Shown: piece after piece, positions 53,273 through 59,804 of the stretch
Layout of the letters: each line of letters begins with the position of its first letter
Position numbering within the stretch: the first letter of the stretch is position 1
DNA from: Gemmatimonadaceae bacterium
Lineage (GTDB): Bacteria; Gemmatimonadota; Gemmatimonadetes; Gemmatimonadales; Gemmatimonadaceae
NCBI GenBank assembly: GCA_051859245.1
Contig: JBHYGA010000001.1
Span: forward strand, 640,001 to 704,000
DNA: 64,000 bases
Reading direction: 5' to 3'
Program-made: the position numbers and the translations under genes
Notes under the pieces: generated by a model
What the model was told of the DNA's origin: nothing
Database searches by the model: none
Seen by the model: only the letters and a program-made list of their open reading frames with translations

Positions 53273-54514
53273 CTACGCGCGCCGCAACACCAGACTCGCG
53301 TTAATCCCACCAAACCCAAACGAGTTACTCAGCACCACATCGGGCGTCGCATCCCGCCCGCGCTGCGGCACATAGTCGAGATCGCACGCGGCATCCGGCG
53401 TCTCGAGATTCAACGTGGGCGGTATCCACTTTCGGTCAAGCGCCAGCGCACTGATCGCCGCCTCGATCGCACCGGACGCACCGAGTGCGTGCCCGTAGTA
53501 CCCCTTGGTGCTCGACACCGGAATACGCATGGCCTGCGCGCCGAGCGCGCGCTTGATCGCCAGCGTTTCCGTGGGATCATTGAGCGGTGTCGCGCTGCCG
53601 TGCGCGTTCACATAACTCACATCGTTCGGCGAAACATCCGCGTCGGCCAACGCGAGCGTAATGCACCGCGCCGCCTGCGTCCCATCGGGAAGCGGCGCCG
53701 TCATGTGGTGTGCGTCGTTTGTGGTGCCGTACCCCGCGAGCTCCGCGTAAATGTGTGCACCGCGCGCCACCGCATGATCCCACTCTTCAAGCACAAGCAC
53801 CGACGCGCCTTCACCCATGACGAAGCCGTCGCGATCTGTATCGAACGGACGTGACGCGCGTTCCGGTTCATCGTTGCGTGTGCTCATGGCACGAATCAGC
53901 GCGAACGCACCAAAACACAGTGTGGCCAGTGGAGCCTCCGCGCCGCCCGCGAGCATGACGTCTACCTCGCCATCACGTACGCGTCGAAACGCTTCACCAA
54001 TGGCGATCGTACCAGACGCGCAGCTCATGGCGTTGGTGGAGTTTGGCCCCGTAATGCCAAACTCAATCGCAATGTTGCAGCTCGATGCGCCGCCAAACAC
54101 GGCCAATGCGAGTGTTGCGTCAACGGCACGCAAACCGCCTTGCATGAATCGACCCGCTTGCTCTTCGGCGTATCCCACGCCGCCGAGTGCAGTGCCCATC
54201 ATCGTGCCAACACGATCGCGGTCGACGTGGTCTAGCTCGAGCTGCGCGTCTTTCAGCGCGAGCATTGCCGACACCACGCTGAAGGCACCAAATCGATCCA
54301 GTCGCTTGACGCGTTTTTCGTCGAGATAGTGCGTCGCGTCAAACTCAACCGATGCATTACAGCGACTGCGAAAGATCGACGCGTCAAAACGCGTGATCGC
54401 CGTGACCGCGCTGCGTTCCGCGCGCAGTCCTTCCCACAGGGCATCCACTCCCGTGCCGATGGGCGTAACACAACCAATGCCAGTGATCGCCACGCGTCGA
54501 CGCACGCGACTCAT
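53273..54514 (-). CDS. FabF-like beta-ketoacyl synthase (KAS II / KS-alpha-like)
   Basis: VAITGIG, AMSCASG (Cys), SRPFD.DRDGFVMGEG, NAHGSAT and GHALGASG (His-His), SNSFGFGG. Confidence 0.9.
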   Translation of the reverse strand: MSRVRRRVAITGIGCVTPIGTGVDALWEGLRAERSAVTAITRFDASIFRSRCNASVEFDATHYLDEKRVKRLDRFGAFSVVSAMLALKDAQLELDHVDRDRVGTMMGTALGGVGYAEEQAGRFMQGGLRAVDATLALAVFGGASSCNIAIEFGITGPNSTNAMSCASGTIAIGEAFRRVRDGEVDVMLAGGAEAPLATLCFGAFALIRAMSTRNDEPERASRPFDTDRDGFVMGEGASVLVLEEWDHAVARGAHIYAELAGYGTTNDAHHMTAPLPDGTQAARCITLALADADVSPNDVSYVNAHGSATPLNDPTETLAIKRALGAQAMRIPVSSTKGYYGHALGASGAIEAAISALALDRKWIPPTLNLETPDAACDLDYVPQRGRDATPDVVLSNSFGFGGINASLVLRRA

Positions 54515-55155
54515 GTGGACGATCCGTCGCGATGCGAAGCTGTTTCGCGTGACGTCACACGTGTTGCGTCAACCGGCGCGACAACCCGCGCGTCGCGCGT
54601 GGTCACAGCGCGCGTCTCACCGCGCTCAGCGGCCTTGGCCAATCCCGCCAGAGTGCGCGACGCAATGCCGTGCACAAACACCGGCCCAATCACTGCAGTG
54701 GCCGCAAACGGCCCGATCAATGGCCAGTGCGGACCATCCCACGTATGCAAAATGCGCACGTGCGTGCCCTCGGCGACTGCCTTGAACTCCCAGGCCACAT
54801 CCATGCGCGTCGTGACGCCGCCAATGTGACGAAAGCGAATGAGCGGTGTGTCGTGATCCACCGACATTTCAGACAACCACCACGTGGGCCAACCCACCGG
54901 GCCAAACGGGCGATTCGCGCTCATCTCCACGATGCCACCGCCGTCACTCGCGTGCTCGCGAAACCGAACGAATCGATAGTGCGGCAAGTACGCGGGCCAG
55001 TGCTCAACCTTTCGAGCGATCTCAAAGATCTGCGCGACCGGCGCACGAACAATGCGTTCGTCGATGGTGATCAGGCGCCGAGCCATCGGCACGGGGCCAA
55101 GGTCGAACGGTGTGCGCATGGATTGGGCGGACGAAGCGTGAGCGTGCGATTGCAT
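54511..55155 (-). CDS. SRPBCC/START-fold protein (polyketide cyclase/dehydrase family)
   Basis: RIVRAPVAQIFEIARKVEHWPAYLPHY and M...W.F....GTHVRILH pattern. Start is 55155 or 55119. Confidence 0.75.
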   Translation of the reverse strand: MQSHAHASSAQSMRTPFDLGPVPMARRLITIDERIVRAPVAQIFEIARKVEHWPAYLPHYRFVRFREHASDGGGIVEMSANRPFGPVGWPTWWLSEMSVDHDTPLIRFRHIGGVTTRMDVAWEFKAVAEGTHVRILHTWDGPHWPLIGPFAATAVIGPVFVHGIASRTLAGLAKAAERGETRAVTTRDARVVAPVDATRVTSRETASHRDGSST

Positions 55156-55160
55156 GAATG

Positions 55161-55856
55161 TTAGCGCGGGGACCAACTGGCGGTGACGCGCCAACCAAGG
55201 CGATGTCGTACGGTGGCCGAACGCTGCACCGCCTGCTGCACAATGGTGCGCAGCTCGGAGGCGGTGTACCCGCGAAAGATGGACACGATCCCGTCGTGTC
55301 GGCTCACGGGATGAAAGCCCAGCGGAAACGACACCAGCCACAACAGCCCCGCGGCCAGCCAACTGCGGCGAAGATCACTGACAATCACCGCACTTCCCGC
55401 AACACGCGTGAGCTCCGTGAGCAGCGCATCTGCGTCGGAGTGTTCAAAATGATGCAGCACCTGCGAACAGGTCACGATATCAATGCTGCCCGAGGCAAAA
55501 GGCAGGGCTCGTGCATCGGCCGTGAGTGCGCGATCCGCCCCCTGTCGTGCCGCGGAAGCGAGCGCGGCGGTGAGCTCCACGCCAATCGTGACCATGGTGA
55601 CACCACGTTTGCGCGCAAACGCTCGCGCAGCGCGCGGAATATCACCGAGGCCGGTGCCAACATCGAGCAATATGAGCGGGCGCTGTTCGCGCTGCGCACG
55701 TTCGACAAGCGGTGCCAGCGTAGCGATCACCGCACGTACGCCACCAAACAGCAGATTGGCTCGCGCCACATCGCGCAATGATCGCGTGGCAAGGGCCGGA
55801 TCGAGCGCGGGATCGTCGAGCAACTCCACGCCGCGACGACGCGCTGGAGTCAGCAT
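55161..55856 (-). CDS. Class I SAM-dependent methyltransferase
   Basis: ELLDDP N-terminal motif, LLDVGTGLGD motif I, SQVLHHF, SDLRRS, SRHDG.VS. Confidence 0.88.
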   Translation of the reverse strand: MLTPARRRGVELLDDPALDPALATRSLRDVARANLLFGGVRAVIATLAPLVERAQREQRPLILLDVGTGLGDIPRAARAFARKRGVTMVTIGVELTAALASAARQGADRALTADARALPFASGSIDIVTCSQVLHHFEHSDADALLTELTRVAGSAVIVSDLRRSWLAAGLLWLVSFPLGFHPVSRHDGIVSIFRGYTASELRTIVQQAVQRSATVRHRLGWRVTASWSPR

Positions 55857-55876
55857 GCGCGCGCCGCGATCACGAA

Positions 55877-56380
55877 CTAGCGCGCGAGCCGAGCGTACGC
55901 GCCTCGGAAATACAACAATGGATCGCCGTCTTCATAGCGTACCGATTGTACCGCGCCCACCACAATGCGATGATCGCCGCCTTCGTGTATTGCGGTAATA
56001 CGGCATTCCAGCAACGCGAGCACACCCTCGAGCTGAATCAGGCCGTTCTCGCCGCGTGTGAATGCGGCTTCGGTAAATCGACCGGCGCGATCGGTGGCGA
56101 ATCGGCGCGACACGGCTTCCTGATCGTCGCGCAAAATGTGCACGTTGAAGTCGGTGGCCTGCGGCAGCACGCTGTGCCACGTGGCCGATTGATCGATGCA
56201 CACCAGCACGAGCGGTGGATCAAGGCTGAGCGAGCTGAACGCGCTCACGGTCATGCCGTAGTCACGCCCTTCGGTGTCACGTGAGGTCACCACGGTGACG
56301 CCCGACGCAAATCGGCTGAGCGTGGAACGGAACTGTGCGGCGTCAACGAGCGCGTTGACGGGAGTCATTGCAGGAGTCAT
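55877..56380 (-). CDS. Flavin reductase-like protein (HpaC/RutF family)
   Basis: FASGVTVVT, TVSAFSSLSLDPPLV, GGDHRIVVG, PLLYFRG; ATGA-coupled to the upstream gene. Confidence 0.9.
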   Translation of the reverse strand: MTPAMTPVNALVDAAQFRSTLSRFASGVTVVTSRDTEGRDYGMTVSAFSSLSLDPPLVLVCIDQSATWHSVLPQATDFNVHILRDDQEAVSRRFATDRAGRFTEAAFTRGENGLIQLEGVLALLECRITAIHEGGDHRIVVGAVQSVRYEDGDPLLYFRGAYARLAR

Positions 56381-57615
56381 GTACGGACAGGAGGAACGAG
56401 CATGCGCCACAGTACACCTGGGCGCAACACTTCACGGGCCGGCACAAAGTCGCCGGTTACACCAATGAGCAGATCAGCGAGTTCAGTGCGGCGCGACATT
56501 ACACGCGCCGCGTGATTCATGAGCCGCGGAAATGACACCGCAAGGCCGATCAGCTGCTCAACACGCCACTTTCCCGAGAACGCACGCACACGCGCTTGCT
56601 GATACGCGCGCAGTGCATGCAGGGACGCCCGCGCGCTGGTCGCACGCACGGCGTCAGCAGCGAACGGCGCCAGCATTTCTCCGCCGCGCAGCGCTGAATA
56701 AATGCCTTCACCTGTGAACGGATCAAAAAAGTCCGCGGCGTCGCCAACGAGCGCAGCGTCTGGTGCATACGCGCGCCGTGCGTGCGAGCCAAACGGTCCG
56801 GTTGCACGCACCGGTGATACACGCGTGGCGCCCTCAAAGCGCGACGCGAGGTGCGGATACTGCGCGATCCATCGCTGCACAAACGCGTCGGGATCGCCGT
56901 TCATGTTGCGCGCCTGCGACGCCGGTACCACCAACGCCACATTCGTCAGACCGTGACCAACGTCGGCCAAGCCCACGTACCCGTCGTGCTGCACGTGCAT
57001 TTCGCCGCGCGATCCGATGTTGCGCAAACCGGACCAGTGCGCCACCAGCGCCAAACGACGTGGCCACGCTCGCCGACGTGCCAAACCGAGGTCGCGTGCG
57101 ACCACCGATCGCAGTCCGTCGGCACCGATCAACAGCGCGGTGCGAATCGTGTGCAGCGAATCGTTTTGCCGAACGACCACATCGTATCCACGATCACGTC
57201 GTGTGATTCGCTCCACGCGCGCGCTTTCGTGAACACTCGTTCCCGCGGCGCGCGCGCGATTGAGCAGCAGTTCATCAAGGACTTCGCGGCGCAGCGCCAA
57301 CCCACGATCCCGAAAGCCGCGAAAACCGTGCTCGGCCACAAACGCACCTTCAATTTCAAATCCGTTCGGCGCGCGCACGACCATGCCAGTGAGTTGCGCC
57401 GCGCCCGCGGCTTCGACGAGCTGCAGCGCACCCATGGCTTCGAGCACGCGCGACGCTTCTGGACTCAGGTATTCCGCGCACGGTTTGGCGCGCGGAAAGG
57501 TGGCGCGATCCAGCACGGTCACATCGATCCCCGCCGAGGACAGGAAATGCGCCGTTGACGACCCCGCGGGGCCGCCTCCAACGATCAAGACCTGCGTGGT
57601 GTTCGGCAGCGACAT
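56377..57615 (-). CDS. FAD-dependent oxidoreductase (geranylgeranyl reductase/monooxygenase family)
   Basis: IVGGGPAG, FPRAKPCAE, IGADG..S.V, VGDAADFFDPFTGEGI. Confidence 0.9.
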   Translation of the reverse strand: MSLPNTTQVLIVGGGPAGSSTAHFLSSAGIDVTVLDRATFPRAKPCAEYLSPEASRVLEAMGALQLVEAAGAAQLTGMVVRAPNGFEIEGAFVAEHGFRGFRDRGLALRREVLDELLLNRARAAGTSVHESARVERITRRDRGYDVVVRQNDSLHTIRTALLIGADGLRSVVARDLGLARRRAWPRRLALVAHWSGLRNIGSRGEMHVQHDGYVGLADVGHGLTNVALVVPASQARNMNGDPDAFVQRWIAQYPHLASRFEGATRVSPVRATGPFGSHARRAYAPDAALVGDAADFFDPFTGEGIYSALRGGEMLAPFAADAVRATSARASLHALRAYQQARVRAFSGKWRVEQLIGLAVSFPRLMNHAARVMSRRTELADLLIGVTGDFVPAREVLRPGVLWRMLVPPVRT

Positions 57616-57788: not shown

Positions 57789-58592
57789 CTATAACGTGAG
57801 TCCGAGCGCCAGCAATGCGCCGGCGAATGTTGCGGCCAGATTGACAAGATCATTGTCAATCGCGGAGCGACCGCCCACGAGCCTGGTTGATGTGCCGCAG
57901 AGATGCACGTGTTGCTCGGTGCCGGCGTGGCACACGTCGCACCACCGTCGCTCTTGCCACCACGCGCCAATGAGCGAGTCCACGATCGCGCCGCCCACGC
58001 CGCCGGCAAGTACGGCTGGTACCGCGTGTTCTGGGATTAGGCCGAGCCCAAAGGCGAGCAGCGCGTACGCGAGTGCGCCCACTACCATGGCCAGCGATCC
58101 CCACACGCTGATCGCGCCCGACGTCCCTGCGGGCACCCACTGACCAGTGCGCAGCGACCACGCCTCCGCCTTGCGCCAGGTGCCAAACTCCGTGGCCCAT
58201 GTGTCGGCGCCAGCGGCGGCTAACGCCCCCGCCGCAGCGATTGCCAGCGCGATCGCCGCGCTCGGTTCAACGGCAAGGATCGCCACGAGCGCGCAGCCGG
58301 CGAAGACCAGACCATTCGCCAGCACCTGTCGTGCGTCACGAGCACCGGGTTTGGCAACCACGCCGAGCACGTGTCGTTCTTTCCGACCACGGCCAACGCG
58401 CGACAGCAGCGACGCGGACACAAACCACGCAATGAGAAATGCGCCCCAGTCGGGGCCTGCGGCAACCGCTGCGATGCCAACACAGAGTGCCGCGAGGGCA
58501 CCGGATGCGGTCAGGGATCCCGCTCGCCAGGCAAGGGCACTGATCACCCCTGCAATGCTTGTCGCCGCCGCGAGTGTGATCAGCGTCGGCAT
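57789..58592 (-). CDS. DUF92 (TMEM19/VTE6-like) membrane protein
   Basis: RDARQVLANG, ADTWATEFG, GTSGAIS..G, DSLIGA, NDLVN. Confidence 0.9.
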   Translation of the reverse strand: MPTLITLAAATSIAGVISALAWRAGSLTASGALAALCVGIAAVAAGPDWGAFLIAWFVSASLLSRVGRGRKERHVLGVVAKPGARDARQVLANGLVFAGCALVAILAVEPSAAIALAIAAAGALAAAGADTWATEFGTWRKAEAWSLRTGQWVPAGTSGAISVWGSLAMVVGALAYALLAFGLGLIPEHAVPAVLAGGVGGAIVDSLIGAWWQERRWCDVCHAGTEQHVHLCGTSTRLVGGRSAIDNDLVNLAATFAGALLALGLTL

Positions 58593-58610
58593 AAACAACG
58601 AAAGCCGCGC

Positions 58611-58904
58611 TTAGTCGTGACTGTGGTCGTGCTCCGCGAACAACTGCGCGACACGCAGCCGCAGGCGACGCGAGGCCATGACCGACAACTGAGAATGTCT
58701 GATGGTTTCAATCAGGCGGCGGAGCGACTGTTCGGCTCGGCGGCAATCGGCGCATTCCACAAGGTGGAGCCGAACGCGCGATGTTTCTGCTTCGGTTGAC
58801 TCGCCATCGACATACGCATCCAGACAATCGAGAACCGCGAGGCACTCCGGGGATACAGCCTCGGATGCTGCGTGTCGTTCGGTTTGAATGGAAAGCGATG
58901 CCAT
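58611..58904 (-). CDS. zf-HC2 (ZAS) anti-sigma-factor-like protein
   Basis: C...L.AYVDGE....HLVECADC (HxxxCxxC); soluble, ~97 aa. Confidence 0.75.
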   Translation of the reverse strand: MASLSIQTERHAASEAVSPECLAVLDCLDAYVDGESTEAETSRVRLHLVECADCRRAEQSLRRLIETIRHSQLSVMASRRLRLRVAQLFAEHDHSHD

Positions 58905-58994
58905 ATCTTCAATCCTTTGGCGGGCCGCGGATGCACGCATCAGCCGTTCGACGGGGATTCGACGGCCAGCGCAATGCAATGTCTCAACATAACG

Positions 58995-59019
58995 AACGGC
59001 ACCCGCCGAGAAAGGTTCC
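58995..59019 (-). promoter_or_regulatory. Putative ECF sigma promoter
   Basis: Minus strand GGAAC-N16-CGTT, ~90 nt upstream of the anti-sigma gene. Confidence 0.5.
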
Positions 59020-59120
59020 ACGCCGGTGGGCGATGCGGCGCGGGCGCTCGCTACGGAGACGTGCCGTTCCGTGATGGGCACTGCCTGTTCCACCCCCGCT
59101 CGCGTCACTACTTTGCTGTG

Positions 59121-59804
59121 GTGACCCACACGTTTCCCGACCTGACACAGCGCTTCACGCCGCCCCTCGGCGTCACCGTACTTTCACTCAGCGGACCGCC
59201 CGTACACGCGGTCGTGCCGCTGTCGCTGCTTGAAGCGGTGCGCGCGCTTGATCTGCCGGCCGCAGATCTCGACACCGAACTGGTGCACGAGCTGCGCAAT
59301 AAGCGCTTCGGGTTGAGCGACACGGTGTACATGCAGATCAAGCGGTACGCTGAAGCGGTCAAGCGACAGCAGCCCGTCGCGTTCGATGAAGTCGTCGCAC
59401 TCGCCCGTCTCGTTGGACGGCGACCCGATGCGGACATTGTGTTTCGCGAGACCGGTCGACGTGTTGCGCGTACCGCACTCGACACGGTCGCCTCGACCAC
59501 GCGTCGTGCTGCCCGCTCGCTGCCAGGGGCGATTGCGCGCCCAATCGCTCTGCGGCATTTGCGCGCGCTGTCGCGACGCTTTCTGGCGGGATCCATTGAG
59601 CGCCAAGGGAGTACGTTGGTGCTGAATGTGGTCGCGCCCATCAGCGCTGACGCCGCCGCCAACGGTGGTGGGTGCGGCTACTACGAAGCAGCGTTTCGTG
59701 AACTGCTGCTCGGACTCACTGGCGTTGATCACGCCATTCAAGTGGTCGCGTGCCGTTCGCGTGGCGACGCATCCTGCCAATGGCGCACTGACTGGAGACG
59801 ATAG
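59121..59804 (+). CDS. Hypothetical protein with V4R-like C-terminal domain
   Basis: C.YYEAAFRELL...ACRSRGDASCQW resembles the V4R Cys pattern. Start uncertain. Confidence 0.6.
   Translation: MTHTFPDLTQRFTPPLGVTVLSLSGPPVHAVVPLSLLEAVRALDLPAADLDTELVHELRNKRFGLSDTVYMQIKRYAEAVKRQQPVAFDEVVALARLVGRRPDADIVFRETGRRVARTALDTVASTTRRAARSLPGAIARPIALRHLRALSRRFLAGSIERQGSTLVLNVVAPISADAAANGGGCGYYEAAFRELLLGLTGVDHAIQVVACRSRGDASCQWRTDWRR

Follow-up and report, generated by a model that had tools for sequence, protein, structure and literature searches.

What do five tightly packed genes that put a ketosynthase (KS) beside an SRPBCC protein, a methyltransferase (MT) and two flavin enzymes make in a Gemmatimonadaceae bacterium? 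The original prediction read them as an operon in which a KAS II-like enzyme and a cyclase may take the place of a type III polyketide synthase (PKS), which would yield a methylated, hydroxylated aromatic lipid, pigment or quinone. The five minus-strand ORFs are present at 53273..57615 of the window (the whole 64-kb stretch of DNA analysed; Table 1), with 4-bp ATGA overlaps at 56377-56380 and 54511-54514, as had been reported. Of the other gaps, given as 5 to 20 nt, the 20-nt one stood, whereas the 5-nt one is true only if the SRPBCC gene starts at 55155; homology favors a later ATG, at 55119 or 55086, which gives a gap of 41 or 74 nt.

Table 1. Features of the cassette and the genes upstream of it
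Feature	Position	Strand	Description
FAD-dependent oxidoreductase	56377..57615	-	412 aa, PF01494
HpaC-like flavin reductase	55877..56380	-	PF01613, E 4.8e-40
Class I SAM methyltransferase (MT)	55161..55856	-	Methyltransf_11/25; best NCBIfam PRK06202, under cut-off
SRPBCC/START protein, mono-domain	54511..55155	-	PF03364
KAS II-fold ketosynthase (KS)	53273..54514	-	413 aa, PF00109/PF02801
DUF92 membrane protein	57789..58598	-	PF01940
zf-HC2 anti-sigma-like ORF	58611..59129	-	PF13490 at aa 96-130, weak RsrA similarity

Two further same-strand genes, encoding the DUF92 and zf-HC2 proteins, lie upstream and had gone unmentioned; they are 12 nt apart, and 173 nt separate DUF92 from the FAD oxidoreductase gene. 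The zf-HC2 coordinates are those of the longest ORF, whose real start is probably later. This protein is a possible regulator; no sigma gene was recognized beside it within the window, and ECF sigma genes lie upstream of DUF92 in two relatives' loci (L025 and L066). A scan for sigma-70 promoters found 0 against 1.3 expected, and one for terminators found 2 against 6.8 expected; neither count is informative.

That the five genes belong together is borne out by their conservation. All five, in the same order, are kept in 17 of 20 relatives' loci, which places the arrangement beyond chance. The flavin reductase is present in 18 of these loci and was not found in those of Chloroflexota, Vulcanimicrobiota or Chthoniobacterales; it is an add-on of Gemmatimonadales-order loci, outside the core. 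DUF92, upstream in 15 of the 20 and not found in the cassette loci of other phyla, probably heads the operon as an accessory gene in Gemmatimonadales. The core itself is SRPBCC and KS, usually with the methyltransferase and FAD enzyme: the SRPBCC gene lies directly upstream of the KS gene in 26/26 clade loci (four phyla and one unclassified), versus 0/54 other FabF-type loci. Outside Gemmatimonadales, the order is MT-FAD-SRPBCC-KS (8/26 clade loci). The methyltransferase is absent from 9 of 102 SRPBCC-positive genomes, including 7/7 of genus g14; in four Chthoniobacterales genomes it is apart from the cassette and has no FAD gene closer than 1.5 kb. Overall, the cassette is conserved in most Gemmatimonadales, and the SRPBCC-KS pair at least in three further phyla. 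In 20 KS representatives, taken for their length or top rank, no N-terminal SRPBCC fusion occurs, the fusions seen being with sensor domains. In some cassette loci, B12 radical-SAM genes are inserted.

The KS passes the fabF model TIGR03150 (511 bits against a cut-off of 493.75) and, by structure comparison, has the FabF (KAS II) fold, with the same triad and gate loops. It is nevertheless a paralogue. A separate plsX-fabH-fabD-fabG-acpP-fabF cluster, whose own fabF is 44% identical to it, rules out the KS as the genome's sole FabF; fabD, fabG and acpP, which do not neighbor the cassette, as had been reported, all lie on its contig at a distance of about 1.05 Mb. Three KAS II-like genes, each with a catalytic Cys, occur in this 99.87% complete genome. 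In a quickly built tree that took in 57 of the 109 rows, with one KS-alpha and one CLF (chain-length factor) as references, the KS fell in a clade apart from the FabFs (SH-aLRT 100). Its best matches on plasmids are 45-48% identical; the three examined are a KS-alpha, a fabF linked to fabD and a fabF whose cluster contains an ACP.

The triad Cys165-His305-His342 and the motifs AMSCASG, HGSAT and KGYYGH read as first described, and the triad is kept in 73/73 clade members. The clade KS resembles FabF in GFGG and Asn404, in its gate Asp265 (72/73) and in 5/6 basic AcpP-contact positions, and differs from it in several substitutions fixed within the clade and in its acyl-pocket helix, which is rebuilt (LALxVFGG). 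The FabF Gly107 position is Ala in 73/73, and the Thr305 position is Ser (Ser307) in 71/73, compared with Thr in 67/67 FabFs; both replacements occur in the KS-alpha compared. In the available part of PMC9006962, Ser in place of one pantetheine-pocket Thr is described as a feature of type II aromatic PKSs, and in that of PMC7138838 Asp265 is tied to off-loading from one cycle to the next; at that position, actinorhodin's iterative polyketone KS has Asn. Neither a CLF nor an ACP had been seen in the cluster, and the same is true on a wider scale: no CLF was found in the genome, and its sole PF00550 match lies in the fab cluster. No dedicated ACP occurs in the 26 clade loci, some of which are ended by contig ends. 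The genome has 0 PF00195 (type III PKS) matches, the control being positive in 5/14.

DarB is a KAS III-like enzyme. A reaction in its style, in which the KS would join two ACP-bound fatty-acid intermediates head-to-head and SRPBCC would aromatize the ring, giving a dialkylresorcinol for the tailoring enzymes, would suit the kept acyl-ACP gate and the rebuilt pocket helix, and would need neither iteration nor a CLF; ACP-less Dar-type clusters are known (PMC6836626, available part). We nonetheless regard it as very unlikely, since the KS has a KAS II fold and a Cys-His-His triad, whereas DarB is of a distinct class by its description in that paper, and since the tailoring pair is typical of monoalkylresorcinol clusters.

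The SRPBCC protein is modeled with an aromatase/cyclase-like fold (AF2, pLDDT 85). Its top PDB sequence matches are TcmN and WhiE-ORFVI, also BexL; Foldseek ranks TcmN best, and structural alignment gives Z 20.5 with ZhuI (rmsd 2.1, 152 aligned). These scores are to be read beside those of non-cyclase START proteins, which come nearly as high (TTHA0849, within 1 Z unit, at 20.0; MSMEG_0129 at 18.0). Y37, W70, H87 and H114 are invariant (82/82), and TcmN W28, Y35, W65 and S67 are retained, the Tyr35 position being Tyr in 82/82. In contrast, the TcmN Arg69 position is mostly Met or Gln and the Arg82 position is His in 82/82; a START protein without Arg has been interpreted as non-catalytic (PMC13525633). 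The protein had no match among plasmid sequences.

By sequence, the FAD oxidoreductase belongs to the GGR/halogenase/QhpG superfamily and is predicted to be a ring hydroxylase with a HidB/Fdo-like role, with FADH2 predicted to come from the flavin reductase. It is 40-44% identical to FAD enzymes adjoining type III PKSs and shares 28% identity with the Fdo type of planctomycetes. Its best PDB matches are halogenases. WxWxIP is the motif of flavin-dependent halogenases; it occurs in 0/66 cassette FAD proteins, which rules out that identity, and CmlS and 8zop bear it where the FAD oxidoreductase reads GYVGLA. The methyltransferase conserves the SAM motif LLDVGTG; its family resembles PRK06202 and is related to the Mtr type of planctomycetes.

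The same enzymes could instead serve to modify or transport a prenyl lipid or isoprenoid quinone, with GGR-like reduction by the flavoprotein, UbiE-like methylation by the methyltransferase, Coq10-like carriage by SRPBCC, a part for DUF92, and a KS supplying an unrelated acyl chain. The best NCBIfam match of the flavoprotein, just below cut-off, is indeed to the geranylgeranyl reductase superfamily (TIGR02032, 146.9 bits; cut-off, 158.8), and the plant phytyl-phosphate kinase VTE6 is a DUF92 protein, of the family found upstream in most relatives' loci. However, the closest linkage is SRPBCC-KS rather than SRPBCC-DUF92, DUF92 is confined to the Gemmatimonadales among the loci compared, UbiE/MenG scores for the methyltransferase are weak (25 bits), and the Coq10-like CC1736 (Z 13.9, rmsd 3.0, 143 aligned) ranks far under the ARO/CYCs. 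This is the least probable of the readings that we weigh.

Comparative evidence also comes from exchange with type III PKSs. The link of this kind of methyltransferase and FAD enzyme to type III PKS genes, put forward in the original prediction, is found in all nine plasmid matches of the methyltransferase family, which have both partners. Within genus g63, genomes G152 and G172 carry MT-FAD-type III PKS without SRPBCC, and G173 carries the KS cassette. Among 151 genomes of the phylum, 6/7 strong type III PKS matches fall in SRPBCC-negative genomes (of 34 PF00195-positive genomes, 27 have weak partial matches only, assigned as a group to FabH-like proteins). The 80 metagenome loci include 25 with SRPBCC and KS, 10 with type III PKS and 0 with both; another 11 pair a different KS type with the same methyltransferase family, without SRPBCC, and 8 of these have the FAD enzyme. 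Strict mutual exclusion is ruled out by G059, which combines SRPBCC with a type III PKS that stands alone. In the FAD tree, type III PKS-linked enzymes occur in three places, and a single clade is rejected (p-AU 5e-12); type III PKS and KS contexts interleave in the FAD and methyltransferase trees, the latter poorly resolved and weakly supported, with one bootstrap that had not converged. The type III PKS clusters nearest by FAD are uncharacterized and represent about two lineages. That the tailoring pair moves between the two contexts is most simply explained if both supply a similar ring. The proposed replacement of a type III PKS by KS and cyclase gains support from these comparisons; the proposed product, the unreduced iteration and the cyclizing role of SRPBCC are our inference, and some active-site features run contrary to them.

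Our reading leans, if only slightly, toward an operon that makes a methylated, oxidized phenolic membrane lipid of the alkylresorcinol/alkylquinone type, with the KS and cyclase-like protein replacing the type III PKS. The KS homodimer would accept a long acyl chain carried on the one ACP of fatty acid synthesis and add about three malonyl units, left unreduced. SRPBCC would shelter the tetraketide and close and aromatize one ring; release and decarboxylation would follow by a route not assigned to a cassette gene. The methyltransferase would then add an O- or C-methyl group, and the flavoprotein, with FADH2 from the flavin reductase, would hydroxylate the ring to a hydroquinone or quinone. 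Residue comparison lends support through the Ser and Ala replacements in the KS and its kept AcpP contacts and Asp265, and modeling through the ARO/CYC fold matches of SRPBCC and its putative pocket of invariant His, Tyr and Trp. As a precedent, the brt cluster is described in the available part of PMC6836626 as borrowing a primary-metabolism ACP. Against the pathway count the replaced TcmN arginines, the gate Asp265, by which a released ketoacyl-ACP would probably meet FabG, and the finding of no thioesterase or other release gene in the cassette. Also counting against it are the cyclase-free KS type that shares the tailoring pair and the low identity to planctomycete Fdo, an enzyme type that was inactive in the host tested (PMC10896814, available part). 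More tentatively, and with somewhat more doubt than belief, we propose that a homodimeric KAS II-type KS, which has neither a CLF nor a dedicated ACP, carries out repeated condensations without reduction on the fatty-acid ACP, then passes its chain to a histidine-lined mono-domain cyclase.

Several of the contrary features would suit a non-aromatic lipid, with the KS elongating a special acyl-ACP stepwise, SRPBCC acting as a dehydratase or lipid carrier, and methyltransferase and flavoprotein modifying the chain. They include the FabF-like Asp265, GFGG and Asn404, the lost arginines, the use of the tailoring pair by the cyclase-free KS type and the B12 radical-SAM insertions; moreover, SRPBCC His114 aligns with a His of the BexL N-terminal domain, described as dehydrating before aromatization. 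Still, assayed methyltransferase relatives work on alkylresorcinols, as far as the available texts describe them, and the pair swaps between type III PKS and KS-SRPBCC. We therefore consider this reading unlikely, albeit a serious contender.

A phenolic lipid would place the cassette next to known systems, namely hidABC, for cyanobacterial hierridins, and the mtr-fdo-type III PKS operons of planctomycetes (PMC10896814 and PMC6836626, available parts). Measured on plasmid or planctomycete copies, the methyltransferases are related (31% identity to a Paludisphaera plasmid copy) and the FAD enzymes share the motif GYVGL; both kinds of cluster do without an ACP. The MT-FAD-SRPBCC-KS form keeps the mtr-fdo-type III PKS order, with SRPBCC and a KAS II-type KS in the PKS slot, and in Gemmatimonadales the additions are DUF92, the flavin reductase and, in some cases, a gene for an ECF sigma factor or a B12 radical SAM protein. 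As in type II aromatic PKSs, a discrete Cys-His-His KS adjoins a protein of the ARO/CYC fold (TcmN, ZhuI, WhiE-ORFVI, BexL); unlike them, the genome has no CLF or dedicated ACP, and the KS has Asp265. By the descriptions available in PMC10896814 and PMC6836626, SrsABC, FtpABC, AgqABCD and DarAB/BrtCD are likewise small phenolic-lipid clusters with fatty acyl starters, the first three using type III PKSs; DarAB also pairs a ketosynthase with an aromatase, although DarB condenses head-to-head, and brt likewise has no ACP.

No characterized pathway matching the cassette, and no description of it, was found in the searchable literature (open papers, main texts; titles or abstract starts); the available part of PMC11316326 does not mention it. 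The cassette enzymes resemble ordinary FabF, and therefore detection rules that look for a type III PKS or a KS/CLF pair would likely miss the cluster. If the more tentative proposal of an iterating homodimer is true, alkylresorcinol/alkylquinone lipids would have a third enzymatic origin, and the cassette would rank as the smallest aromatic polyketide system of type II, almost core to Gemmatimonadales and evolutionarily interchangeable with type III PKS. If our main reading is true, an abundant, barely cultured soil order would have, as a near-core trait, a phenolic lipid or an additional quinone unreported in the literature searched. A FabF-like homodimer that makes an aromatic polyketide without a CLF would also bear on the origin of aromatic type II PKSs from fatty acid synthesis. 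With four or five small genes, the cassette is directly accessible to heterologous expression. In the ESM Atlas, SRPBCC falls in three clusters, with Gemmatimonadota the commonest taxon.

We show that the window's cassette is real, conserved, and uncharacterized. The original prediction's five ORFs and gene order were borne out, as were its two ATGA overlaps and KS motifs. Pfam and NCBIfam assign a GGR-superfamily-like FAD_binding_3 flavoprotein (FAD), a Flavin_Reduct protein, a PRK06202-like methyltransferase (MT), a Polyketide_cyc protein (SRPBCC), and a ketosynthase (KS) scoring above the fabF cut-off; named close homologs are from Gemmatimonas/Gemmatimonadaceae. Across 40 relatives, 38 (including the unpublished G021) encode a KS 64 to 96% identical to the window KS. 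The five genes are indeed conserved together, being complete and in order in 17 of the 20 loci fetched from these 38, a selection favoring long contigs; the other three are cut by a contig end, lack the flavin reductase, or lack the methyltransferase. SRPBCC is single-copy in 102 of 151 Gemmatimonadota genomes, a set in which 94 of the 107 other Gemmatimonadales genomes carry it. The methyltransferase occurs in 97 of the 151, 93 of them with SRPBCC and, as read by eye, about 90 of these 93 with both genes ≤2.5 kb apart. In genome G037, the cassette is decaying (FAD and KS genes broken, SRPBCC missing, flavin reductase intact); the pathway is dispensable in this lineage.

Upstream of the cassette, the same strand carries a DUF92 gene and a zf-HC2 ORF. 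The latter, anti-sigma-like, heads the DUF92 operon; no sigma gene was recognized beside it in the window, and some relatives carry ECF sigma genes upstream of DUF92. In some Gemmatimonadales, a B12-binding radical SAM gene, absent from the window, separates DUF92 from the FAD gene.

The source genome, G000 (99.87% complete), has its sole ACP within a plsX-fabH-fabD-fabG-acpP-fabF cluster. Its three KAS II-like genes all keep the catalytic Cys, so the genome has no chain-length factor (CLF), and the cassette KS is therefore an extra. The housekeeping fabF-acpP to be sought elsewhere was thus found, and the claim that the cassette has neither CLF nor ACP holds. Any ACP-bound cassette chemistry would have to run on the fatty-acid ACP. 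No type III PKS was found in G000, nor close paralogs of any of the four non-KS genes. The third FabF-like gene stands alone, on a long branch inside Gemmatimonadales housekeeping FabFs, with apparent counterparts across many genomes of the genus. Radical-SAM and other ORFs, presumably the futalosine-pathway menaquinone genes mqnE, mqnA, and mqnC, immediately follow the housekeeping fabF.

In both sequence and fold searches, polyketide aromatase/cyclases rank top for SRPBCC, tied with the uncharacterized TTHA0849 and well above the Coq10-like CC1736. Tyr37, Trp70, His87, and His114 are invariant across 82 sequences, which would suit an enzyme pocket. Since Arg69 and Arg82, key TcmN residues in the available text of PMC13525633, are both replaced, SRPBCC is not TcmN-type by this test.

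Queries with distant KS clade members found among representative proteins gave 598 genome loci, of which the best 80 were fetched. In 26 of these, SRPBCC lay immediately upstream of KS (13 Gemmatimonadota, 4 Chloroflexota, 4 Chthoniobacterales, 4 Vulcanimicrobiota, and 1 unclassified); no ACP or type III PKS was seen in the DNA fetched around them. The other 54 were FabF-type without SRPBCC. In a quick tree (57 of 109 rows), 23 clade KSs form one branch (SH-aLRT 100), six representative proteins having been assigned to the clade by motif rather than neighborhood. This branch is separate from housekeeping FabF and probably also from the one KS-alpha and one CLF included. Comparing 73 clade KSs with 67 FabFs, at positions taken from the accessible text of PMC7138838 and PMC9006962, we found Ala at E. 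coli Gly107 (73/73), Ser at Thr305 (71/73), Ser preceding the catalytic Cys (71/73), and a rebuilt pocket helix; the triad, Asp265, GFGG, and Asn404 are retained, with basic residues at five of six AcpP-contact positions. From these alignments, the cassette KS looks able to dock acyl-ACP like FabF but has a pocket different from FabF's, two changes being KS-alpha-like. A Dar-like head-to-head route is improbable. Three Chthoniobacterales loci (L064, L067, and L068) place SRPBCC-KS near a xylose-isomerase-like TIM barrel and a RibD C-terminal protein, two of them also near an LPG-synthase membrane protein, with the methyltransferase elsewhere in the genome. Among representative proteins, some FabF-like KSs with intact catalytic Cys are fused to signaling domains, suggesting signal- or c-di-GMP-controlled ketosynthases; four tested PocR-KS fusions cluster together in the KS tree.

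The link drawn in the original prediction between the tailoring pair and type III PKS genes was confirmed: all nine plasmid matches of the methyltransferase adjoin a type III PKS-like gene and a FAD enzyme, one being a planctomycete mtr-fdo-PKS operon. As far as the accessible text of PMC10896814 and PMC6836626 goes, PKSs of such operons make resorcinols with pentadecyl and heptadecyl chains, one probable C-methylation came from the Gimesia mtr-fdo pair, HidA performs O-methylation, and the FAD enzyme's role is putative. In eight of the 26 clade loci, the gene order is MT-FAD-SRPBCC-KS, which matches mtr-fdo-PKS with SRPBCC and KS in the PKS slot. Genus g63 includes both arrangements: two genomes carry MT-FAD-type III PKS and lack SRPBCC, and another carries the KS cassette. 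Six of seven strong type III PKS matches (six fetched) fall in SRPBCC-negative genomes, G059 being the exception, and PF00195 had no match in five non-Gemmatimonadota clade genomes of unstated completeness. In a metagenome scan biased by its KS-linked query, the best 80 of 324 loci comprised 25 with SRPBCC and KS, 10 with type III PKS, 11 with another KS type without SRPBCC, 1 with ACP, KS, and B12 radical SAM, 4 with SRPBCC but no KS within the fetched DNA, and 29, many short, with none of these; PKS and SRPBCC never co-occurred. Nine type III PKS-linked FADs (40 to 44% identical to the window FAD) are closer to it than cassette FADs of Vulcanimicrobiota or Limnocylindrales (29 to 37%). In the FAD tree (45 of 88), PKS-linked FADs fall in three places, and a single clade was rejected; methyltransferase trees (38 and 49 rows) agree weakly. 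Therefore, the pair switched condensing partner more than once. Isoprenoid tailoring is very improbable. A cluster on Novosphingobium plasmid pLA3 (similar in L159 and L160) combines FAD monooxygenase, type III PKS, KAS II-like KS, ACP, DUF2147, and the same methyltransferase family; its KS is 37% identical, outside the SRPBCC-linked clade.

We lean toward the simplest account, a phenolic-lipid pathway in which KS and SRPBCC take over the type III PKS's contribution and provide the tailoring enzymes, methyltransferase and flavoprotein, with a ring-headed lipid. In this scheme, the KS would be loaded with acyl-ACP and perform about three unreduced malonyl extensions, the ring would close within the SRPBCC pocket, and the released product would be methylated and finally hydroxylated by the flavoprotein. 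The cassette would work like hidABC/mtr-fdo-PKS, yet it has no PKS, and it resembles type II aromatic PKSs, yet without CLF or ACP. The proposed route is weakened by retention of the Asp265 gate, FabG competition, replacement of the TcmN arginines, a cassette without any release enzyme, and a cyclase-free third KS type beside the same tailoring family. A non-aromatic modified lipid is a rather unlikely product. The flavoprotein's nearest structures are halogenases, an identity ruled against by the absent halogenase motif. We found no description of the cassette in open-access full text, the scope of this search.

The third type, a different KAS II-like subtype, directly adjoins the same methyltransferase family, often with a FAD enzyme. 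Alignment of five of the eleven shows STGCTSS or a close variant around the Cys, the motif GHPQGASG, and a gate loop changed to NCIGFGSKN. Neither SRPBCC nor ACP was detected at these metagenome loci, and this KS may be another stand-in for type III PKS.

Coordinates and identifiers of the features discussed
Feature	Locus, protein, or window position	Genome position
zf-HC2 anti-sigma-like ORF	window 58611-59129	
ECF sigma genes	L025:8315-8893, L066:1952-2548	
B12-binding radical SAM genes	L058:1150-2613, L071:269-1720, L019:7550-9037	
Decaying cassette	L139	G037:C5:282000-295000
Third FabF-like gene	L010:8080-9429	G000:C1:1493112-1494341
ORFs after housekeeping fabF	L009:8797-11982	G000:C1 about 1752800-1756000
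KS fusions: PocR with or without GGDEF; PilZ; response-regulator receiver	P0135, P0137, P0138, P0143, P0159, P0165, P0201, P0214, P0268; P0141, P0193, P0254; P0160	
pLA3 cluster	L032:815-4678	
Third KS type	L207:3433-4944, L228, L231, L234, L240, L211, and five others among the best 80 of 324 metagenome loci
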